DNA of 64,000 nucleotides from Oceanispirochaeta sp. (GTDB taxonomy: Bacteria; Spirochaetota; Spirochaetia; DSM-2461), in contig CAXXXD010000002.1 in the NCBI GenBank assembly GCA_963663385.2, positions 1,024,001 to 1,088,000 of the forward strand, read 5' to 3'. Positions 21,382 through 53,179 of this stretch are shown here, piece by piece (position 1 is the first letter of the stretch; every line of letters begins with the position of its first letter). The translations under genes and the position numbers were made by a program. The notes beneath the pieces were generated by a model. That model had not been told where the DNA came from. It saw nothing but the letters and a program-made list of their open reading frames with translations, and did not search any database.

Positions 21382-21707
21382 TTGAGGAAATTGTATGCAT
21401 CAAGCGGGAGAATAGCCCTGTATTATAGTAAATTTAATATGTTTTCTATAAAATGAACCGCAAATCAGCAAACGTTTATTTACGGGAATATTTTTTGTAT
21501 TTTTATCGGTCGCTGCAGGGGATGTCGAACTCTATTCCACTTAGAATTCCAAAAGGGGAAAATTATGCATTCTGTATGCACGCAGTGTGCATTCCTGTCC
21601 TGAAGCCGGCTGGCTTGCGGCATTGTTCAAATCACATCTTTACATTGACTTATCATCAAAATGTTGGTTAAATAATATTTTACTCTACTAGAGTTATGCC
21701 CATTTAT

Positions 21708-45031: not shown

Positions 45032-45087
45032 AACCCTCTCCCCAGTTCCCTCTCCCAGGGGGCGAGGGGAATCAAAGGGGTGAGGGT
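45032..45087. repeat. BoxC-like palindromic repeat, type 2
   Basis: ACCCTCTCCCCAGTTCCCTCTCCCAGGGGGCGAGGGGAATCAAAGGGGTGAGGGT. Confidence 0.75.
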
Positions 45088-45100
45088 GACGGCAGGTGTT

Positions 45101-45769
45101 CTACTCCTGCCGGTACCAGTCCATTTTCTGGCCTATCCTGCCGGCCAGTTCTTCCATATCCTTGTCGGTATGGTACTCCATGCCTGCCCGGCTCATGGAA
45201 ATTCCTCCATCCTGATCCCGCAGCCGTATGGCGCTGTGGTGGGTTGCTTCAAGGGGAATCCTGATTCTTCCCCGGGGATCGCTTATATCAAGGGTGCCGT
45301 TACAGAGACAGAAGTAGGTTGTCCGGTTGTCTTCTTTTTTTATGAAAAAAGACGTTCCTCTTACACCTGCTATTACATTCCCGGATTCTATGTGAAAAAG
45401 ATCGTCTTCCTTTTTCAGGAGGGTTTTTATATTCCTGAGAACAGCCGCCGCAGTTCCTCTCTCTACGTTCACCATAGCTTCCGAGAAGGATATTCTCATA
45501 ATGGTATCATCGAAAATCCTGATGATATTGCTGCCCAGAAATGTAATTTCGCAGTATCCGTTCTCATCCGTCTGGAGAATCGATCCATCAGGCACTTTTG
45601 CCCCGACCAGTACCGGATTTCCATTGATAAGAACACTCCCTTCCAGTCCGATTACAGATCCCTGAACAGAGGAGGACTGGACATTGCCGCTATTTTTTGA
45701 AGGAGAACAGGAAAGTCCAAATATCAGTAAAAAAAACATCAAAAGATAAAAAAAACGCATTTTCTTCAT
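45101..45769 (-). CDS. FecR-domain lipoprotein
   Basis: Lipobox GLSC; AGVRGTSF motif. Confidence 0.75.
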   Translation of the reverse strand: MKKMRFFYLLMFFLLIFGLSCSPSKNSGNVQSSSVQGSVIGLEGSVLINGNPVLVGAKVPDGSILQTDENGYCEITFLGSNIIRIFDDTIMRISFSEAMVNVERGTAAAVLRNIKTLLKKEDDLFHIESGNVIAGVRGTSFFIKKEDNRTTYFCLCNGTLDISDPRGRIRIPLEATHHSAIRLRDQDGGISMSRAGMEYHTDKDMEELAGRIGQKMDWYRQE

Positions 45770-45869: not shown

Positions 45870-45899
45870 TTGACAACATGGAGTCATATTCGTTACCAT
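45870..45899 (+). promoter_or_regulatory. sigma70 promoter of the 45942 gene
   Basis: TTGACA-18-TACCAT; predicted TSS about 45906-45907. Confidence 0.65.
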
Positions 45900-45941
45900 T
45901 TCTACTATTGAAACAAACTTAATAACATTGAGGAGAAATTA

Positions 45942-46919
45942 ATGAAGAAATTATTAGTTCTGCTAATTCTTATTTCTTTCACAGTCGGCGTATTTGCCGA
46001 CGATGCTCTGGTTATGCCCGAGGGTGTAATCCGCGCCTATTTCGTCGGATCATACGGGATGACCGACAGTGCATATGATTCTGACGGAGAAGAACAGGAT
46101 TCTGATACAGGAGAAACCAAATTCTTTAATCAGGGATATGCTGTGGAACTGGGTGTAACCGATTCCATTACAGCAGCCCTGCAGTGGGTTCCCGGGCATA
46201 ACCTCTATTCGGATGTCGAAAATGCTGAAGACGTTGAGCTTTCGGGAGCTTATGATCTGTTTGCGGGTGCCAAAATCCAGATCCTCGGAGATCATGGTTT
46301 TGTAAAGAACGATCAGTTCCGTTTTTCAATGGCTCCCGGTTTCAGAATCCCCCTGGATTCCTATGATGCGGTAGAGGAAGCTGAAAACTATTTGGCTGGA
46401 GATTCCTACAGAGCTTCAGGTGTGTCAAATGAGTCTCTCGGAATCGGTTCAAGGATTTACTTTGACTACATTGTAAATGAAAACTTTTTCCTGAACCTTT
46501 ACAGTGAAATTATCTATAATATTCCCGTTGATAAAACGTCTGCAGATCTTGGAGCTGATGCGATCGGGGCTGCTATGATGGGTACAGATCTTGATGAATT
46601 GGAGTATAAATACGGAACCGATATGGTTTTCGAATTTGAACCCCAGTACAGCTATTCTGTAACAGACAAGAGTTCTCTGAAATTTTACCTGCCCGTTAAC
46701 TATGCCATTACACAGGATGTTGAAGTGGAAGGGGAAAAAGTGGATGATTCCGGCAGCAAATATCTGCAGCTCCGACCCGGACTCGGTTACTTCTGCGGCG
46801 ATTTCAAGGTTCCCTTTGAAGCTTCCGTACAGTACGGTCTTCCCCTTATGGGTGAAAATACAGCAAAGATGCATACCATTGTTTTCAAGCTGAAAGTATA
46901 CGCCAGACTGTGGGAATAG
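45942..46919 (+). CDS. Outer-membrane beta-barrel protein (predicted sRNA target)
   Basis: Signal peptide ending VFA; amphipathic beta strands with an aromatic girdle; terminal strand VFKLKVYARLWE; SD GAGGAG. Confidence 0.7.
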   Translation: MKKLLVLLILISFTVGVFADDALVMPEGVIRAYFVGSYGMTDSAYDSDGEEQDSDTGETKFFNQGYAVELGVTDSITAALQWVPGHNLYSDVENAEDVELSGAYDLFAGAKIQILGDHGFVKNDQFRFSMAPGFRIPLDSYDAVEEAENYLAGDSYRASGVSNESLGIGSRIYFDYIVNENFFLNLYSEIIYNIPVDKTSADLGADAIGAAMMGTDLDELEYKYGTDMVFEFEPQYSYSVTDKSSLKFYLPVNYAITQDVEVEGEKVDDSGSKYLQLRPGLGYFCGDFKVPFEASVQYGLPLMGENTAKMHTIVFKLKVYARLWE

Positions 46920-46944
46920 AAATCTGATTTAATCTTTTGATTGA

Positions 46945-46998
46945 AGCCGTCCTTCCCCTCGACTTTGCTCGGGGATCTTGAGGACGGCTGTTTTATTT
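46945..46998 (+). terminator. Terminator with a REP-like unit in its loop
   Basis: AGCCGTCCT...AGGACGGCT-GTTTTATTT; the loop contains CCTCGACTTTGCTCGGG. Confidence 0.65.
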
Positions 46999-47065
46999 AT
47001 AAATTGAATTTGTTTCTGGTTTCTGAACACATCGTGCCGAGCATAGCCGAGGTAAAGTCAGGGGA

Positions 47066-47704
47066 TCAGGCTCTGATGGCGGAAAGCAGAAGCGAGAACA
47101 TGGTTTTAATCAGGTCGTCATCATTGACGTTCATGCTGGCCTTTATCCAGCTCTTGCGGACATATATTTTCTGCATGGTCGCCTGAATCATTGTCAGAAT
47201 TGTAACTGCCATTTCCCGGGGATTACTGATTTTCCGGATGGATCCGTCATCAATTCCCATCTGTATGGTTTTTTCGATATCCATAGTCAGCGCATTCAGA
47301 ATCCCCAGGCATTTCCGGGCATCTTCGCTGGGGCTGTCCATGAAATTGATCTTCTGGTCCAGTAGCAGGGTAAAGACAAACTGATTAAAATGGTCTTTGT
47401 AGTATTCCAGAAAGGTGTTCTGTATCACTTCCAGCTTTTTCAGCCCTGTTGCATGTTTGGAGTCAAAAGACTCTCTGAACATCTCCTTCAGCTTTGCATA
47501 GGATTCCAGCATAATGATATAGGAAATCTCTTCCTTGCTTGTAAAGTAGTGATAGAGGGTTCGTCTGCTCAGTTCCGCCTGTTCCGCTATGTTCAGCATG
47601 GTTGTGTTTTCATACCCCTTGGACATGAACAGTTCCCTGGCTGCGGTCAGTATCTCACGGACCCTCTGGTCTTTTTCTCGTTGTTTGCGTTCTGCTATTC
47701 CCAT
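47066..47704 (-). CDS. TetR/AcrR family transcriptional regulator
   Basis: ILTAARELFMSKGYENTTMLNIAEQAELSRRTLYHYFTSKEEI HTH. Confidence 0.93.
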   Translation of the reverse strand: MGIAERKQREKDQRVREILTAARELFMSKGYENTTMLNIAEQAELSRRTLYHYFTSKEEISYIIMLESYAKLKEMFRESFDSKHATGLKKLEVIQNTFLEYYKDHFNQFVFTLLLDQKINFMDSPSEDARKCLGILNALTMDIEKTIQMGIDDGSIRKISNPREMAVTILTMIQATMQKIYVRKSWIKASMNVNDDDLIKTMFSLLLSAIRA

Positions 47705-47767
47705 TTCCCTAGTTAATTCCGCTTATTGGTATTTGTCAAGGCTGATTACCGATCTGATCAGATGCAG

Positions 47768-47837
47768 AAAAAAAATGGCCGGATATTTCAAATTGAAACA
47801 AACTTAATAACATTAAGGAGAAATATCCAGCCGATAT
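47768..47837 (-). ncRNA. Candidate trans-acting antisense sRNA (about 70 nt; single stem, 30-nt loop, U-tail)
   Basis: AUAUC-GGCUGGAUAUUUC-UCCUUAAUGUUAUUAAGUUUGUUUCAAUUU-GAAAUAUCCGGCC-A-U8; 33-nt complementarity to 45907-45939; promoter immediately upstream. Confidence 0.75.
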
Positions 47838-47872
47838 GCACTTATGATACAGCAACTACACTCAGAGTGCAA
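47837..47872 (-). promoter_or_regulatory. sRNA promoter with two overlapping putative TetR operators
   Basis: TTGCAC (47867-47872)-17-TATCAT (47844-47849); TACAC-TCAGA-GTGCA at 47857-47871 and TGCAC-TTATG-ATACA at 47837-47851. Confidence 0.7.
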
Positions 47873-47888
47873 TTGCTTTTTTGATAAA

Positions 47889-49337
47889 TTAGAAATTGTA
47901 GGATACAGTGAATTCTACAAAATCATTTTCATCATACTGGCCGAAAAGGGTATCCTCGTCGCCCCCGAAAAAACGGGCTGCCATTCCCAGGGTGAAATCA
48001 TCAACCGGTGAGTATTCGATGGAAGGATAAATCCCATAATCAGAGTCTTCAAAATGATAGAATGTGATCAGTTCCGCTTCCAGTTTTTCGTGAAGGTATT
48101 TATCCGATACGGCGAAGATCAGAAGGTTCTCTGTGTATTCCTTATCTTCATCATACTCAATATCACCCAGCCCAATCTCATTTGAATTCAGAGTGAGGGT
48201 TCCCGCTTCCTGAATATTGATGTTCAGGTTACTTACAGGAATGTCTCTGTCAAATCCTGCCACCCACTTAATACTGTTGTTATGAACATCTGTCTTATTT
48301 CCGTCAAAGTCTTCGGTCAAATTGCAGGCAAATTCACCCTTCAGGTTAAATTCGGCCAATATACAGGCCGCTTCAACGCCGAAGGTCTGCATGGGGTCGT
48401 ATTCAAACCAGTAGTTAATCGTGTCCACACCATCAAAGGCGTAATTGAAACTGGGGAGTTTGTTGTAACCGTAGTAGTAGGTGAATCCGTAGTCCAGACC
48501 GCCGGCGGTTGACGTATAATGCATAGCTCCCTGACCATAATCAAATGTATTGATGTCGGATCCGGCAAGAGCCGTTATGCTGGGTGTTACCACAGCACCG
48601 GTCTGTGCGTAGATGGCGGCTGCCGTCTGGGACGCAATCGCCTGCAGTGTCGCGGGGAGCTCAACTTTGGTATTCAGGGGCTGCCAGATGCCCGCTTCTG
48701 CATAACTGTAGGGAGTCAGTGTGGGAACATAGGCCAGTTCCAGCATACCGGACATCCCCAGGGGAACATTAACCTTGAGCATCAGTTCGGGATCGATCAT
48801 CTCCATATAGTCGGGGATGAGGAATTCGCTCAGATTGACGCTGTTCAGAACATCTACCACATGGAACTCATCAGCTTTTCCCCAGACGACTTTCATATAT
48901 CCCGCTTCGAAGTTCATCTTCTCACCGAAATACTGTCCATAGGCTTCGTTGACAGTCACCACGGAATCCCGTTCGCTTCCAGTCATTTCGGGGGTGATAT
49001 CAACATCGGTAACGACTTTGAAATCACTTCCTTCATAGGTAAAACTGAGATTGGCTGCAATAGAGGTTTCCATCTGATCCAGACCGGCTTCTCTGTCGGC
49101 CATATCATCCCTTGCATCTTCAGAGGCAAAAGCTCTTACAGAAGTGGTTACTCCTCCGTTTACTTCAACGGCGGCAGTGTTCTCATCACCAAAGGCGGAA
49201 TCTCCAAAGGCAGAGTCGCCAAAGCCGAAGTCTTCTGATTCGGAGTCTTCGAACCCCGATGTGAAGAAGGAATCATCGGCCCGGAGACCGGTGCTCAGAA
49301 CCAGTGATGCTGTTAACAGTACCAGTATTTTTTTCAT
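47889..49337 (-). CDS. Outer-membrane beta-barrel protein of an MMPL/LolA-like transport operon (DUF1302-like)
   Basis: Signal peptide; acidic Phe-rich N-tail; NEAY...GYMKVVWGKAD...VDVLN; C-terminal FTVSYNF. Confidence 0.7.
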   Translation of the reverse strand: MKKILVLLTASLVLSTGLRADDSFFTSGFEDSESEDFGFGDSAFGDSAFGDENTAAVEVNGGVTTSVRAFASEDARDDMADREAGLDQMETSIAANLSFTYEGSDFKVVTDVDITPEMTGSERDSVVTVNEAYGQYFGEKMNFEAGYMKVVWGKADEFHVVDVLNSVNLSEFLIPDYMEMIDPELMLKVNVPLGMSGMLELAYVPTLTPYSYAEAGIWQPLNTKVELPATLQAIASQTAAAIYAQTGAVVTPSITALAGSDINTFDYGQGAMHYTSTAGGLDYGFTYYYGYNKLPSFNYAFDGVDTINYWFEYDPMQTFGVEAACILAEFNLKGEFACNLTEDFDGNKTDVHNNSIKWVAGFDRDIPVSNLNINIQEAGTLTLNSNEIGLGDIEYDEDKEYTENLLIFAVSDKYLHEKLEAELITFYHFEDSDYGIYPSIEYSPVDDFTLGMAARFFGGDEDTLFGQYDENDFVEFTVSYNF

Positions 49338-49339
49338 TC

Positions 49340-50110
49340 CTATCTCCCTGTGTTCAGAAACTGGGTTGTAAACATATTGCTGTTAACAGGTTTATCGAAT
49401 TCTACATTCAGTACTTTCATCTCTGTAGCGTGGCCGTTCTGAACATTATCAATACGGGTCAGGATGGGAGTCCAGTGACCGTCAATGTTTTTAAGCTGTT
49501 TAACCGACATTACCTTGTAGAGATTCTCCTGCTTGTCGTACATCTCGATTTTAACGGGGGTCCAGGTTTCCTTGTCGAACCAGGTCAGACGGTAGGCATA
49601 CTGGGAATCGGCAGGATCCACGGCTTTGCCTTTTACTACGTAACAGTTCCATTCGGAAAATGATTCTTCCCGGATCAGTTCGTGTGTGTCCCGGTCAAGA
49701 TCACGGGTTTCCATATCGTCATAGGAGGCATCAGAACCCATAAAAGACTTGCTGCCGTCAGAAGTAGAGATCCGGCGGACCCTTTTCATGGCAGGCAGGT
49801 AAATCCATTTGTCATCGGCTCTGTCTTCATTCTGTACCTGCAGGAACCGTGTGTTTTTTACACTGGCGGGGCTTCTGAAAACCATTATGCTGCTGGCAAG
49901 GTCGTTCTCTTCCATACCCCACTGTTCGATCATTCTGGAGGAAACATTTCCTCCCTCTTCAATCAGGTCCATCTGCAGGGCCATATGGGTTGTATCAGGT
50001 TTGTCCCTGTTGTCATAGTTCCGGGCTACTTCAAGGCCGGTTATGGCAAATAGGGAAGGTGATACCAGCAGCAGGGCCAGTCCTGTTAAATTACTTATTG
50101 TCCTTTTCAT
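49340..50110 (-). CDS. LolA-like outer-membrane lipoprotein-sorting family protein
   Basis: FRSPASVKNTRFL, WIYLPAMKRVRRI, FMGSDASYDD; located between MMPL and OMP genes. Confidence 0.8.
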   Translation of the reverse strand: MKRTISNLTGLALLLVSPSLFAITGLEVARNYDNRDKPDTTHMALQMDLIEEGGNVSSRMIEQWGMEENDLASSIMVFRSPASVKNTRFLQVQNEDRADDKWIYLPAMKRVRRISTSDGSKSFMGSDASYDDMETRDLDRDTHELIREESFSEWNCYVVKGKAVDPADSQYAYRLTWFDKETWTPVKIEMYDKQENLYKVMSVKQLKNIDGHWTPILTRIDNVQNGHATEMKVLNVEFDKPVNSNMFTTQFLNTGR

Positions 50111-50134
50111 AATAATCCTCCGGATTTATTTTTT

Positions 50135-50324
50135 ACCCTTTCCCTGCCCTCTCCCGGAAGGAGAGGGTTCAAGAAGAAGTAATATATGCTTTGTTTTTCT
50201 CCCCTCTCCCTCCGGGAGAGGGGCTGGGGGTGAGGGCCTCTGTTCAAGGCCCCTCTCAGTCTCCCCGAAGGGGAGATGCAATCTGTTGTCAGCTCCCCTC
50301 CTACGGAGGGGACGGGGGAGGTCC
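50135..50324. repeat. Two tandem BoxC-like elements (type 2 then type 1) inside the operon
   Basis: CCCTCTCCCGGAAGGAGAGGG...CCCCTCTCCCTCCGGGAGAGGGGCTGGGGGTGAGGG, then GTCTCCCCGAAGGGGAGA...CCCCTCCTACGGAGGGGACGGGGGAGGTC. Confidence 0.85.
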
Positions 50325-53075
50325 TTACGCACTCTTCTTCCGTTTTCCCTCGCTGTCTTTTCCTCCCTTTCCGCTTGTATCCCTGCTGATGAATTTCGGT
50401 TTGAAAATATTCAGCAGGGCAGGCAGTACCGTCAGGGCTGCAATGGAAGATGTTCCCATGATGATTGCCACCAGGGCTCCGATAAAACGGAGTACAACAA
50501 ACTTTGAAAAGATGAGTACCAGAAATCCCAGACCTACAGAAACCGCATTTGTAATGATGGCCTTGCCGGACGACATAACAGTTTCTTTCGTTACTGTATC
50601 CAGGTTATCCGACTTGAGCCGTTCAATTTTATAGCGGCTGAGAAAGTGTATGGTGTAGTCTACGCCGACACCAATGGCAATTGAGGCGATAAGGGCTGTT
50701 ATCATATCCAGATTTATCCCTGTTAATCCCATAATTCCAAAGTTGATCAGGATGGCCAGGAAGAGGGGCACAATCCCGTAAAATCCTGCAAAAGGAGACC
50801 GGTAGGCAATGGATACAATCAGGAATACTGCAACAAGGGCTGTGAGAAGGCTTTTGATCTGGGATCCTGTAATCATATCGGTCAATGCTTTTACCAGTTC
50901 CGCAATTCCCGAGTTTTCAATGGTAATGTTATCGGGGAAATGGGCATCGGCATAACTGTTGATATCTTCCAGAATCTCGGCGCAGACTGCTGTATCGGAT
51001 ACTTTCAGCTGTACGAGCATTCTAACCTGTGTGGGTTCCAGAGAATCATCGGAGAACTTGTCCAGTGAGCCTGAGTAGAGAAGCAGGTACTGGGAGATCA
51101 GGTTTTTCAGTTCCTCATTGGAGGCGGCAGGATACTTGGAAAGATCCGTGGGGATTTCGTAATAGGCTTTTCCTCTGACATTAAAAGCTTTTTCAACTTC
51201 GCTGGTCAGATCCGCAATGGTAAAATTGCCGTCTCCATTTTCATTAACCACCTTTCTGGCCAGGTCGATAAGGGTGGCCCATGTCAGGTCATCTGTCATG
51301 GAAAGGGGCTCGAAGGTCACAGGCGAGGCTTCCGTCAGTTCTTCGCTGTCATCGCCGAAGAAGGAACCTGAGTCAGAATCATCATCACTGAAGAAGGATG
51401 AGTTCCCCTCGCTGTCATCGCTGAAAAAGGACCCTGAATCAGAGTTGTCATCGCCGAAGAAGGAACCGGCTTCTACACTTTCGTAGTCGTCATAGCTTCC
51501 AAAATCCTCAGAACCCTCTTCTACGGGAAAATTCATTACCTGATTCATCCTCTTGATGAAATCGGCATATGTCATGATTTTCCCGATATCTGGATGGGTT
51601 GTCAAAAGATGCTTTTTCAGGTTATCCATCTCATTCAGAACCAGGGGATCAATCACATCACCGGGATTTTCCCCTTTTACAACAATGTTGAATGTGTTGG
51701 TTCCGGCGAAATGATCAGAGATATAGTCGGCATTAACCCGTAGAGAGGAATCCTTGGGAAAGTAGTCGATCAGGGCGCTTTCGATATTCATCTGAGTCAG
51801 CCCGTAAGCGGAGATAAGTACGATAGCTATTGTAATAACTAGAATCCCCGTTCTATGGCTGGATAATCTGTTATAAACCGCTTCCATTCTTTTATGAGAG
51901 TGGTCTTCTCTTTTCTTTATCTTGGCCTCCAGAGCAGATTTATCCTTAAGGACTTCCCTGTCTTTATAGGAGATGATCATCAGAGCCGGAATAAAGGTAA
52001 GAGAAAGAACTAAAGCTATCACCGTACCGATTGTTGAAAAAAGACCGAATGTCTTGAGAGGAACAATGGGGCTGGTTATGATGGAGGAAAAACCGACAAT
52101 CGTCGTAAATCCGGCCAGCAGAACAGGTTCCAGAACCAGATTCACTGAGGAAATTACTATTTCCTTATGCTCCTGAACGGAAACCCTTTTTTTCTGATTG
52201 CGCATGTCCGTGTAGTAATGGGTCATTACATGGATACCGTACGCGCTGCCGATTGCAATAATCAGTACGGGCAGACAGGTTGATACAATACTGAAAGCCA
52301 CATCGAAAAGAGCCATGATTCCTACGGTCCAGATTGTCGTAATCATTACGGTTATCATGGGAAGCAGAGTTCCTCCCAGGCGATGGAAGGCGAAGTAGAG
52401 GCTTAACAGAAGTACAAGCAGTACCAGCGGGATAAGGGCTGTCAGGTCTGCTATCATGAAAATCTCAGCATCGTGGGAGATAACAGGATCTCCGGCAACA
52501 CGGATGTCCAGCCAGTCGTAGTTTACAGAATATTCGACAATCCCGTCATAGATGGCATTTTTTTCCGCATGATTGGCATCCTTGTTTACTACAACCAGAA
52601 TCTGAGTCGATTTAAAGTCTCTGGAATAAAGGCTGTTTTCATACATGTCCGGCCAATCCAGAAGGTTGGTTTTCAGCTGAGCCAGCTCTTCCTCTGTTCC
52701 TGTAAAATCGTCTCTGATAAGGGGTTCGACAATCATACCTTCCGATGAACCATCAGGAAAATCCGTATTCAGTATGGATGTAAGGTCATCAACTACCGGA
52801 TTGGCTTCCAGAATTTCAGAAATTTCCCGTATCGCCTGGATCGTTCTGTTGTTGAGAAAGGTTCCATCCTTTTCGGTGATGCAGATATCAAACATGATCT
52901 GACTTTCATACACATCGTCCAGTGCTTTCATCCTTATATAGGAATCATGGTCTTCGGGGAAAAACGCAAGGACATCATTATCCAATACAACTTCAGGGAT
53001 TTGAATCCCCATAAACACTGTAACAGCCAGTACGATTAAAATTATAATCCATGGCTTTTTTAAAATATTCTTCAC
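50325..53075 (-). CDS. RND superfamily/MMPL transporter
   Basis: Two repeats of a large periplasmic loop plus TM bundle; IAIGSAYGIH and IAIGVGVDYTIH; GTG start. Confidence 0.9.
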   Translation of the reverse strand: MKNILKKPWIIILIVLAVTVFMGIQIPEVVLDNDVLAFFPEDHDSYIRMKALDDVYESQIMFDICITEKDGTFLNNRTIQAIREISEILEANPVVDDLTSILNTDFPDGSSEGMIVEPLIRDDFTGTEEELAQLKTNLLDWPDMYENSLYSRDFKSTQILVVVNKDANHAEKNAIYDGIVEYSVNYDWLDIRVAGDPVISHDAEIFMIADLTALIPLVLLVLLLSLYFAFHRLGGTLLPMITVMITTIWTVGIMALFDVAFSIVSTCLPVLIIAIGSAYGIHVMTHYYTDMRNQKKRVSVQEHKEIVISSVNLVLEPVLLAGFTTIVGFSSIITSPIVPLKTFGLFSTIGTVIALVLSLTFIPALMIISYKDREVLKDKSALEAKIKKREDHSHKRMEAVYNRLSSHRTGILVITIAIVLISAYGLTQMNIESALIDYFPKDSSLRVNADYISDHFAGTNTFNIVVKGENPGDVIDPLVLNEMDNLKKHLLTTHPDIGKIMTYADFIKRMNQVMNFPVEEGSEDFGSYDDYESVEAGSFFGDDNSDSGSFFSDDSEGNSSFFSDDDSDSGSFFGDDSEELTEASPVTFEPLSMTDDLTWATLIDLARKVVNENGDGNFTIADLTSEVEKAFNVRGKAYYEIPTDLSKYPAASNEELKNLISQYLLLYSGSLDKFSDDSLEPTQVRMLVQLKVSDTAVCAEILEDINSYADAHFPDNITIENSGIAELVKALTDMITGSQIKSLLTALVAVFLIVSIAYRSPFAGFYGIVPLFLAILINFGIMGLTGINLDMITALIASIAIGVGVDYTIHFLSRYKIERLKSDNLDTVTKETVMSSGKAIITNAVSVGLGFLVLIFSKFVVLRFIGALVAIIMGTSSIAALTVLPALLNIFKPKFISRDTSGKGGKDSEGKRKKSA
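51348..51467 (-). repeat. Coding 33-bp tandem repeat, four units
   Basis: Encodes GSFFGDDNSDS-GSFFSDDSEGN-SSFFSDDDSDS-GSFFGDD. Confidence 0.85.
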
Positions 53076-53112
53076 AGAAACTCCTATAATTTTTTACTTG
53101 TCCGGCAGAGCG

Positions 53113-53179
53113 TGCACTCTTGATTAATAAAATGCACACCCTGTGCAATTAATGTATAAAATAAAATCTAAAAGGTCAA
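53113..53179 (-). promoter_or_regulatory. MMPL operon promoter with tandem putative TetR operators
   Basis: TTGACC (53174-53179)-17-TACATT (53151-53156); perfect TGCAC-ACCCT-GTGCA at 53133-53147 over the TSS; half-site TGCAC at 53113. Confidence 0.75.

Follow-up and report, generated by a model that had tools for sequence, protein, structure and literature searches.

The locus described here occupies 7.3 kb of a 64,000-nucleotide window of the Oceanispirochaeta sp. genome (the window being the whole stretch analysed, positions 1024001-1088000 of contig C2; the genome, G000, is 5.3 Mb and 98% complete, and other genomes are numbered in the same way). Its parts are, in order, ompA (plus strand), tetR (minus strand), a non-coding gap and a three-gene operon on the minus strand formed by mmpL, a LolA-like gene and ompB (Table 1). 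The names ompA and ompB are labels only: ompA is the outer-membrane barrel gene that appears to be the target of regulation and is not Escherichia coli OmpA, and ompB is the barrel gene of the operon. The non-coding gap holds the subject of this work, a predicted small RNA (sRNA) with a hairpin loop complementary to the ompA leader and with putative TetR operators in its promoter like those of the operon.

Table 1. Coordinates of the features of the locus and of one further operator-like site, as positions of the window; a dot marks features given without a strand.
Feature	Position	Strand	Evidence or remark
Perfect operator-like site ~190 nt upstream of oppA-like ABC operon (21768)	21577..21591	.	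21.4 bits, highest in the genome
ompA promoter, sigma-70 type, TTGACA-18-TACCAT	45870..45899	+	no operator-like site
Predicted RNA target: nearly the entire ~36-nt ompA leader, from expected start through ribosome-binding site	45907..45939	+	33-nt direct repeat
ompA, outer-membrane barrel of COG4313/SphA type, 325 aa	45942..46919	+	PF13557, fold match
Terminator-like inverted repeat 3' of ompA	46945..46995	+	read from sequence
tetR, 212 aa, SRRT in recognition helix	47066..47704	-	PF00440, E 1e-17, 63.8 bits (cut-off 24)
Predicted sRNA, ~70 nt, ends predicted	47768..47837	-	fold, conservation, co-variation in 4 relatives
Weak partner operator (2 mismatches), over -10 and start of sRNA promoter	47837..47851	.	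5.3 bits
sRNA promoter, TTGCAC-17-TG-extended TATCAT	47844..47872	-	conserved in 5/5 genomes
Strong operator (1 mismatch), over -35 and spacer of sRNA promoter	47857..47871	.	20.6 bits
ompB, porin-like barrel, DUF1302-related, 482 aa	47889..49337	-	homologues, fold
LolA-like periplasmic protein, 256 aa	49340..50110	-	PF17131, E 1e-64; PF07044 (DUF1329), E 6e-17
REP-like G+C-rich palindrome cluster between mmpL and LolA-like gene	50139..50320	.	repeat search
mmpL, MMPL/RND transporter, nearest HAE3 family, 916 aa	50325..53075	-	PF03176, E 8e-37
Degenerate partner site (3 mismatches), 20 bp downstream of perfect operator	53113..53127	.	0.9 bits; only one half good
Perfect operator over expected operon start	53133..53147	.	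21.2 bits
Operon promoter, TTGACC-17-TACATT	53151..53179	-	promoter scan

A predicted hairpin RNA complementary to the ompA leader

The minus strand of the gap folds into a hairpin with a 13-bp stem (arms 47832-47820 and 47789-47777), a 30-nt loop and a U8 tail (-20.2 kcal/mol, z -4.1; none of 200 shuffles was as good). Positions 47792-47824 repeat the ompA leader at 45907-45939 in 32 of 33 letters (97%); the antisense segment, 47824-47792, makes up the loop and inner stem of the hairpin, and the single letter difference becomes a G:U pair in the RNA duplex. The leader measures ~36 nt from its predicted start, so pairing would leave hardly any of it free and would take in the ribosome-binding site. 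Elsewhere in the genome the 33-nt segment is matched best, with 5 mismatches, by a second copy of the hairpin (described below); the next place has 9. Compared with 2883 leaders, the loop paired best with ompA (-47.7 kcal/mol; next -26.7, mean -13.7), and co-folding gave a net -13.7 to -22.4 kcal/mol after opening of the hairpin; the enrichment of G:U pairs in the duplex was too weak to count. Among the 109 strict large-loop hairpins of the genome only this one matched a leader (E 4e-9; next 0.009), the second copy being missed because of the G+C filter; a looser survey for leader-antisense hairpins was too permissive, and the second copy was its sole informative result. Within these limits no genome-wide class of such RNAs emerged. 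With E values of up to 1 allowed, Rfam returned just two chance matches, both outside the hairpin. A search of this genome (98% complete) found RNase III and neither Hfq nor ProQ.

Thirty-eight genomes of the order were searched with a covariance model built from five hairpins, which themselves necessarily match; the search scores 130-150 candidates per genome, so that diverged copies can be missed. Full-length matches were obtained in exactly five genomes of the genus (this genome and G010, G007, G001 and G002, in all four of which the hairpin lies beside the tetR orthologue), plus the second copy in this genome. Within the genus the RNA was present in 5/5 genomes with ompA and 0/6 without it: ompA was not found in these other six (93-99% complete), two of which, G008 and G009, kept tetR and the operon and missed both ompA and the RNA. 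Weak model matches in G005, G006, G010, G049, G053 and contig C4 of this genome were ordinary short-loop terminators, and those in G019, G042 and G103, all with E of at least 0.37, were discounted, in the case of two G042 matches after inspection. A metagenome scan with a protein query found nothing, and the 24 loci picked up with a 21-letter pattern contained neither the hairpin nor the genes of the locus. Copies of the leader were absent around ompA in 19 loci of other genera outside genus g1 (near-gene search) and in the larger or operon loci compared from 12 genomes. Outside family f1 the ompA leader often starts with a stem-loop of its own (L100, L101, L102, L111 and L177); the leader of genus g1 is open.

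The stem was paired in 65 of 65 cells, with two pairs changed on both sides and six G-U cells, which would be mismatches on the other strand, and the proposed strand folded better in 6/6 cases. These G-U cells, the U tail and the better folding fix the strand of the predicted RNA as the antisense one. The cognate duplexes contain 35-40 Watson-Crick pairs. RNAs from G007 and from G001/G002 pair best within their own group, and the loop co-varies with the leader, in that departures of the G007 and G001/G002 leaders from that of this genome are mirrored in the RNAs. The two groups of RNAs also have central letters and bulges in common that their leaders lack, an indication that they share descent and co-adapted rather than having been copied anew each time.

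The gene upstream of the hairpin is ompB in two genomes, a fecR-like gene in one and tetR in two, while the promoter and operator stay constant; the hairpin is therefore regarded as its own transcription unit, which may double as a terminator. Its own promoter and terminator, a conserved structure and a pairing that co-varies with the target, the features expected of a trans-acting base-pairing sRNA, were thus all found at the sequence level, and it is very probable that the RNA is real and pairs with the ompA leader. A gene for a FecR-domain lipoprotein (45101-45769, minus strand) lies divergent from ompA; in G007 it is located directly upstream of the sRNA.

The second hairpin copy (C2:884429-884500, plus strand; L036 6430-6501) is diverged (model E 3e-9) and has a longer stem re-paired by compensated changes; its best target among the 2883 leaders was again ompA (-37.0 kcal/mol; next -29.5). 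No operator was found upstream of it in the matrix scan described below, and it was not found in the other ten genomes of the genus. It may be a second input on the ompA message or a decaying copy. An imperfect palindrome immediately precedes it, and its neighbours are a methyltransferase/thiamine cluster and pabB.

TetR, its probable operators and possible further targets

An earlier note on this DNA had described two TGCAC-N5-GTGCA-type sites, 20 bp apart, in both the sRNA and the operon promoter, overlapping -35 and -10 in one promoter and the start in the other. The two 38-letter sequences that it quoted were located letter for letter at 47837 and 53113, and the overlaps hold by position. 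Mismatches to the motif numbered 2 (47837) and 1 (47857) in the sRNA promoter and 3 (53113) and 0 (53133) in the operon promoter; each promoter thus combines a strong site with a degenerate one at a distance of 20 bp. The strong site of the sRNA promoter begins in the -35 box (TTGCAC, 47872-47867) and the weak one spans the -10 box (TATCAT, 47849-47844) and the start. The 5.3-Mb genome contains two perfect sites and three TGCAC-N25-GTGCA frames (~0.5 expected per spacing), two of the three being these promoters. When the 39-mer of the sRNA promoter was compared with the genome, the MMPL promoter came out best at 13 mismatches, a score that a single unrelated AT-rich place also reached.

An operator weight matrix trained on the mmpL promoters of nine other genomes, without any site of this genome, ranked 21577 first (21.4 bits), 53133 second (21.2), 47857 third (20.6) and C2:623371 fourth, with a drop from 18.9 to 15.3 bits at the fifth site genome-wide; the partner sites at 47837 and 53113 scored low. 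The ompA promoter, the shape of which is kept in 5/5 genomes of the genus, had a best operator score below 0. For the sRNA, the strong operator was at the same place in 4/4 relatives (14.9-19.2 bits), as was the partner (6.1-10.8 bits), so that all five RNAs have a strong operator at -35 and a weak one 20-21 bp on. Operator pairs in relatives are mostly spaced by 20-22 bp, and by 61 bp in G001/G002. TTGCAC-17/18-TAnnAT was found in 5/5 sRNA promoters with four different -10 hexamers, of which T, A, A and T were always kept. The generic promoter scan showed no excess over shuffles (14 vs. 13.8) and did not list the sRNA promoter, the call of which therefore rests on conservation. Sites at the sRNA, operon and DUF5692 (see below) promoters cover -35, -10 or the start, which is repressor geometry. 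The strict motif occurred one to four times per genome in the ten genomes searched, a tetR-linked promoter being included in eight of them.

TetR family proteins release DNA upon ligand binding, and autoregulation from a shared divergent promoter is common in the family, not universal. The matrix scan gave no site at the tetR promoter of this genome; a divergent tetR layout with shared operator sites was present in G001, G002, G009, G014, G019 and G023. The tetR promoter (TTGACA, 47739-47734) places the predicted start on the ATG or no more than a few bases away from it, suggesting a leaderless message, likewise in several relatives.

The TetR recognition helix and the operator were surveyed together in 24 loci (helix obtained in 22; sites sought in the 300 nt before tetR and the 260 nt before mmpL). 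Helices with RRT went with a TGCAC-N5-GTGCA site in 13 of 15 cases (the misses were G022 and G145, the latter with a site 341 nt upstream of tetR), and those with KG went with TGAC[C/T]-N3-[G/A]GTCA in 6 of 7 (the miss was G038), with no cross cases; the KG motif was defined by eye from four of the surveyed loci, and its independent confirmations are G060 and G274 only. Among four further TetRs, those of G103 and G059 (RRT) had a TGCAC site and that of G111 (KG, away from the operon) had no motif, so that the expected motif was lacking from the stretches scanned in G022, G038 and G111. A second, separate helix and operator change was seen in G042 (RGT helix), where TGAAC-N5-GTTCA precedes mmpL. 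Three helix variants (RRT, KG and RGT) thus match three motifs, and this comparative support, along with the matrix scores, favours the shared TetR operator over both promoters which the earlier note had assumed; judged in this way, TetR can be expected with considerable confidence to bind the palindromes. A 13.3-bit site at the ompA start of G042 was not counted, as it does not fit that genome's own operator variant. KG-class operators sit at the same operon in other spirochaete families (L177 10530-10600, L174 5860-5880, L032 7790-7830, L033 8680-8700, L182 and L184). Clues to the TetR ligand were weak and generic (PDB, NCBIfam and Atlas matches to DarR, FadR and ScbR).

The regulon probably has further members, to judge from the operator sites: the DUF5692 gene and perhaps the oppA-like operon. 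The fourth-ranked site (C2:623371; L120 8372) lies over the -35 of a gene for a DUF5692 membrane protein, in a promoter layout like that of the sRNA, and was not conserved (1/18 DUF5692 loci, this genome only; some loci are incomplete). At 21567-21591 a second palindrome overlaps the perfect site, 10 bp upstream, ~100 nt before the promoter of the oppA-like operon, the binding protein of which is in the 99th percentile for codon bias. Operator sites also precede short lipoprotein-like genes: genes of ~45 aa before tetR in family f10 (G126, L179 3950-4200; G145, L180 3690-3920) and genes of ~165 aa in the sister genus g5 (L160 and L162); these are possible further members. Tandem operator-like sites plus several TTTACACA words were seen in g5 (L121 5780-6040 in G019, L122 5620-5900 in G014 and L123 4170-4400 in G023), and one TTTACACA word is fixed 7-8 nt before the -35 of the g5 ompA, suggesting a second regulator.

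Proteins of the channel and the pump

The ompA product matched PF13557 (29.3 bits; cut-off 22), and its 306 modelled residues fall in the mature length range of COG4313 channels (270-320 aa). Its model (predicted local distance difference test, pLDDT, 84) had Pput2725 as best fold match (4RL8, E 2e-11, template-modelling score 0.64/0.72) at 14% identity. Channels of that family are 12-stranded barrels with the N-terminus in the lumen. COG4313 channels (Pput2725, TcpY and SphA) have been tied to the uptake of hydrophobic molecules in the available account (PMC4493636). This spirochaete subfamily is encoded in 34 of the 301 genomes of the class, the LolA-like gene in 93 of 301 (E 1e-40); the latter was present in 27/34 genomes with ompA vs. 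66/267 without, a comparison among kin and not a test. In families f9 and f45 too, ompA adjoins the operon or the tetR orthologue (G103, G125, G252 and G304), and no hairpin RNA was found near ompA in these loci by locus comparison; the link between channel and module is therefore older than the RNA. The operon of G103 is tandemly duplicated (L171 322-11361), with ompA head-on at its end.

The ompB product had no Pfam match itself, 12 of 114 homologues carry PF06980, and its model (pLDDT 87) matched porins, with OccAB and AlgE among the folds. TIGR00921 was the best NCBIfam match of the MMPL pump (E 3e-78; 263.5 bits, below the cut-off of 351.9). The LolA-like protein has PF17131 and PF07044 above cut-off, and its PDB relatives (9TP6, 3BK5, 4Z48 and 3BUU) are shared with AmeB; an AmeC (COG4447/BNR) gene is absent from the cassette, which has three genes only (47889-53075). 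Deletion of AmeABCD in Castellaniella defragrans lowers monoterpene tolerance and raises dye accumulation (PMC6394551, in the part available), and a related operon is linked to a TetR in Porphyromonas gingivalis (PG1178-PG1181), as described in the accessible parts of PMC11018363, PMC10434189 and PMC13096392. Codon bias did not separate target and operon genes (ompA 95th percentile and ompB 93rd, of 2333 open reading frames).

The mmpL product was 77% identical to that of G042, from another genus (first 453 residues), and 62% to that of G124, from another family (L214 and L178), and only ~47% to the pumps of G001 and G009 from its own genus (L023 and L025); these identities hint at replacement of the operon under a resident TetR. 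Repetitive extragenic palindrome (REP)-like elements were seen at 50139-50320, in a gap of 215 nt between mmpL and the LolA-like gene which is far shorter in relatives, and at 45034-45080 after an oligopeptidase gene; they could influence decay or read-through of the operon message. Acidic, Phe-studded low-complexity repeats occur in the periplasmic loop of the MMPL protein (51343-51464, a 66-nt repeat) and at the ompB N-terminus (49177-49280), the latter disordered in the model; homologues of both proteins carry similar variable inserts.

Regulatory reading, alternatives and significance

The earlier note had proposed an sRNA that shuts off the barrel gene at 45942, and hence an inversion of sign, within a module that exchanges one channel for another. 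The comparison of genomes supports an independent antisense RNA aimed at the leader of that gene, and with it the sign inversion. The position of tetR between the RNA and ompA holds in this genome, but not as a fixed layout (3/5 genomes); RNA, tetR and ompA recur in five genomes, but the operon is at three different places. The exchange of channels fits less well: the barrels are not like-for-like, one having a COG4313 uptake fold and the other belonging to an HAE3/LolA-like/DUF1302-related module, and since ompA folds like uptake channels and the best-studied relative of the module is an exporter, export on and import off is preferred.

The preferred reading is as follows. A TetR dimer on TGCAC-N5-GTGCA operators would block both the operon and a stand-alone RNA of ~70 nt; a ligand, probably hydrophobic or amphipathic, would bind TetR, and both promoters would fire. 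The operon product would move the compound out across both membranes, as extrapolated from AmeABCD. Pairing would nucleate between the 5' end of the message and the unpaired 3' portion of the loop, where the co-variation lies, and would zip through the ribosome-binding site over 35-40 base pairs. Translation would be blocked without Hfq, in a duplex long enough for RNase III, which may cut it, and the COG4313-type uptake channel would no longer be made, resulting in pump up and channel down. We lean slightly towards this full reading, of one TetR repressor that turns export on and import off via the hairpin RNA; that the direction is export or protection seems, by analogy with related systems, somewhat more probable than not.

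Several observations weigh against it. Operator-like sites of 15.5-19.5 bits stand ~140-185 nt upstream of the ompA start codon in the sister genus g5 (G014, G019 and G023), ~110-150 nt upstream of the predicted start and among repeated TTTACACA words; the other 23 ompA loci scored gave 8.4 bits or less, and none of 600 control windows reached 15. The hairpin RNA was not found in g5 by model search or locus comparison. If TetR represses in g5, ompA would be co-induced there, with the opposite sign; activation by TetR would, if it occurs, give the same logic via another route. As for the RNA, the shuffle control of the stem was reached by 12 of 500, and kin sequences can give such a result without structure; the mismatches of the duplex are not all G:U; and the RNA of G010 pairs better with the leader of this genome than with its cognate (-48.9 vs. 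-43.2 kcal/mol), as does that of G002 with the leader of G001. Since G001 and G002 are near-identical and the RNAs of this genome and G010 cross-pair, the co-variation amounts to about three independent states only. RNA run X1 (share 0.06, contigs only) was uninformative, with six short pieces on ompA, from relatives, and none over the hairpin. The RRT/KG split is a single clade switch on the tree, and the partner operator of the operon promoter scores near zero. Uptake by SphA is itself protective, according to the part of PMC4493636 available. In Bacteroidetes, nitric oxide and a shortage of iron or haem induce related operons (PMC10434189, PMC13096392 and PMC11018363), and Pseudomonas DUF1302/DUF1329 genes aid growth on fatty esters (10.1101/2020.07.04.188060, likewise in part); by analogy, these data fit uptake or envelope functions as well as export.

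In the most serious alternative, which comes nearest to the exchange proposed in the earlier note, the wiring is the same and the purpose is another: the operon would be an importer or an envelope-lipid delivery line, and, upon ligand, a default channel would be swapped for a specialised one or an abundant barrel trimmed to free assembly capacity. All the evidence for the wiring applies equally here, and the responses of the homologous operons and genes just cited agree with it, as do the high codon bias of ompA and the co-occurrence of ompA and the module, which adjoin in three families and may have a common substrate. But the two barrels differ in family and fold, the codon bias of ompB is nearly equal, co-occurrence among kin overstates the association, and the sole tested module of such make-up acts as an exporter (PMC6394551, in the part available); we take this alternative to be rather unlikely, though well ahead of those that follow. 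The hairpin could instead be mainly the terminator of the upstream gene, the antisense RNA being a 3' end or processing product and its own promoter minor. A same-strand gene ends 100-200 nt upstream in 5/5 genomes and could read into the hairpin, which is the first terminator-like element after ompB in this genome; against this, the identity of the upstream gene varies around a constant promoter and operator, and a 30-nt loop is atypical of a plain terminator, which makes the idea improbable. The regulatory outcome in this genome would be the same, because the operon is under the same operator.

A change of sign would follow if another factor bound the palindromes or if TetR activated. The distance of the sites at 21577 and before the g5 ompA from the nearest promoter (~100-140 nt upstream) would suit activation or looping, and the three genomes without the expected motif are in line with another binder; yet the motif has switched along with the recognition helix on two separate occasions, repressor geometry is seen at the sRNA, operon and DUF5692 promoters, and the strict motif is scarce and mostly includes a tetR-linked promoter, so that this explanation is given slightly less credit than the terminator. 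The last alternative, that the leader was duplicated neutrally or that its 33-nt copy serves a protein as a DNA site or sense decoy, with gene conversion keeping the two sequences alike, is very improbable. Conversion between direct repeats separated by 1.1-1.9 kb is feasible, and a sense copy would display a GGA motif in its loop, which could presumably be read as a CsrA-type site; but G-U pairs, U tail and promoter all indicate the antisense strand, the letters and bulges common to the G007 and G001/G002 RNAs point to descent and not to fresh copies, and the element is missing wherever ompA is missing.

The logic of the preferred reading, pump up and channel down via an sRNA, is already known from E. 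coli, where MarA, SoxS and Rob raise AcrAB-TolC and MicF, and MicF binds the 5' untranslated region (UTR) of the OmpF message and lowers influx (PMC12282887, in its available part). In both cases one input raises an RND exporter plus an sRNA on the 5' UTR of an outer-membrane channel. The present system would work like MicF but is not MicF: it has a local TetR repressor instead of global activators, all parts in 7.3 kb, pairing of 35-40 bp over the whole leader from a hairpin loop, no Hfq found and no Rfam match, a COG4313 channel as target and an HAE3/MMPL pump. NikS (HPnc4160) of Helicobacter pylori is likewise a repressor-controlled (NikR) trans-acting sRNA, which stops translation from outer-membrane protein leaders without Hfq or ProQ, though with many targets and repressed when the ligand is present (available part of PMC8322730). 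The RNA described here has one predicted target with near-full complementarity and would be ligand-induced together with the pump. Eisenbart et al. 2020 are said to have found that NikS pairs through the extended loop of a stem-loop.

The type I antitoxins IstR-1, OhsC, OrzO and AgrB are also encoded near and not opposite their targets, with long 5' UTR complementarity, and are Hfq-independent, RNase III cleaving the duplex (PMC4147584, as far as available); here, in contrast, the target is a 325-aa barrel and not a small toxin, the ribosome-binding site itself is paired and a repressor controls the RNA and not the target. The RNA thus resembles MicF and NikS in action and these antitoxins in pairing, but belongs with none of them. 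AmeABCD and PG1178-PG1181 have the same combination of an HAE3/MMPL pump, a LolA-superfamily periplasmic protein and an outer-membrane barrel, but the AmeC/BNR gene is missing here, and the available passages on those systems mention no sRNA or linked uptake channel. Compared with the COG4313 channels Pput2725, TcpY and SphA, the ompA product is alike in domain match, size and best fold match, and unlike in its 14% identity and in belonging to a spirochaete subfamily. No report of this RNA or layout turned up in literature searches, most subscription papers and supplements lying outside them. The operon is ordinary, and the RNA link is the new part; the surprise is limited by the E. coli precedent for the logic itself.

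As to origin, the RNA could have been born by copying of the ompA leader, from start to ribosome-binding site, behind a TetR-operator promoter, replacing direct TetR control (as would still be seen in g5) by an inverted RNA link, the cassette being later duplicated under a different promoter (the second copy). The short end-to-end complementarity of the leader would have become the inner stem and the rest the guide-like loop. We put this forward tentatively, as something less than probable.

Little is known of base-pairing RNAs in free-living spirochaetes, and even in Borrelia the way in which they work without Hfq has yet to be settled (PMC13734083). Here a single 7-kb locus has a sensor, an operator and an RNA with one obvious target and a predicted opposite response. 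It ties a widespread MMPL/LolA-like/barrel module to a spirochaete COG4313 channel, and knowing the ligand of TetR would give a clue to what both of them carry. With its co-varying loop and its second copy, the RNA lends itself well to the study of how RNAs of this kind come into being. Should the copied-leader origin be true, it would be a traceable regulatory RNA born from its own target, and a natural, chaperone-free silencer made of a stem plus a swappable 30-nt loop, for bacteria without Hfq, spirochaetes included.

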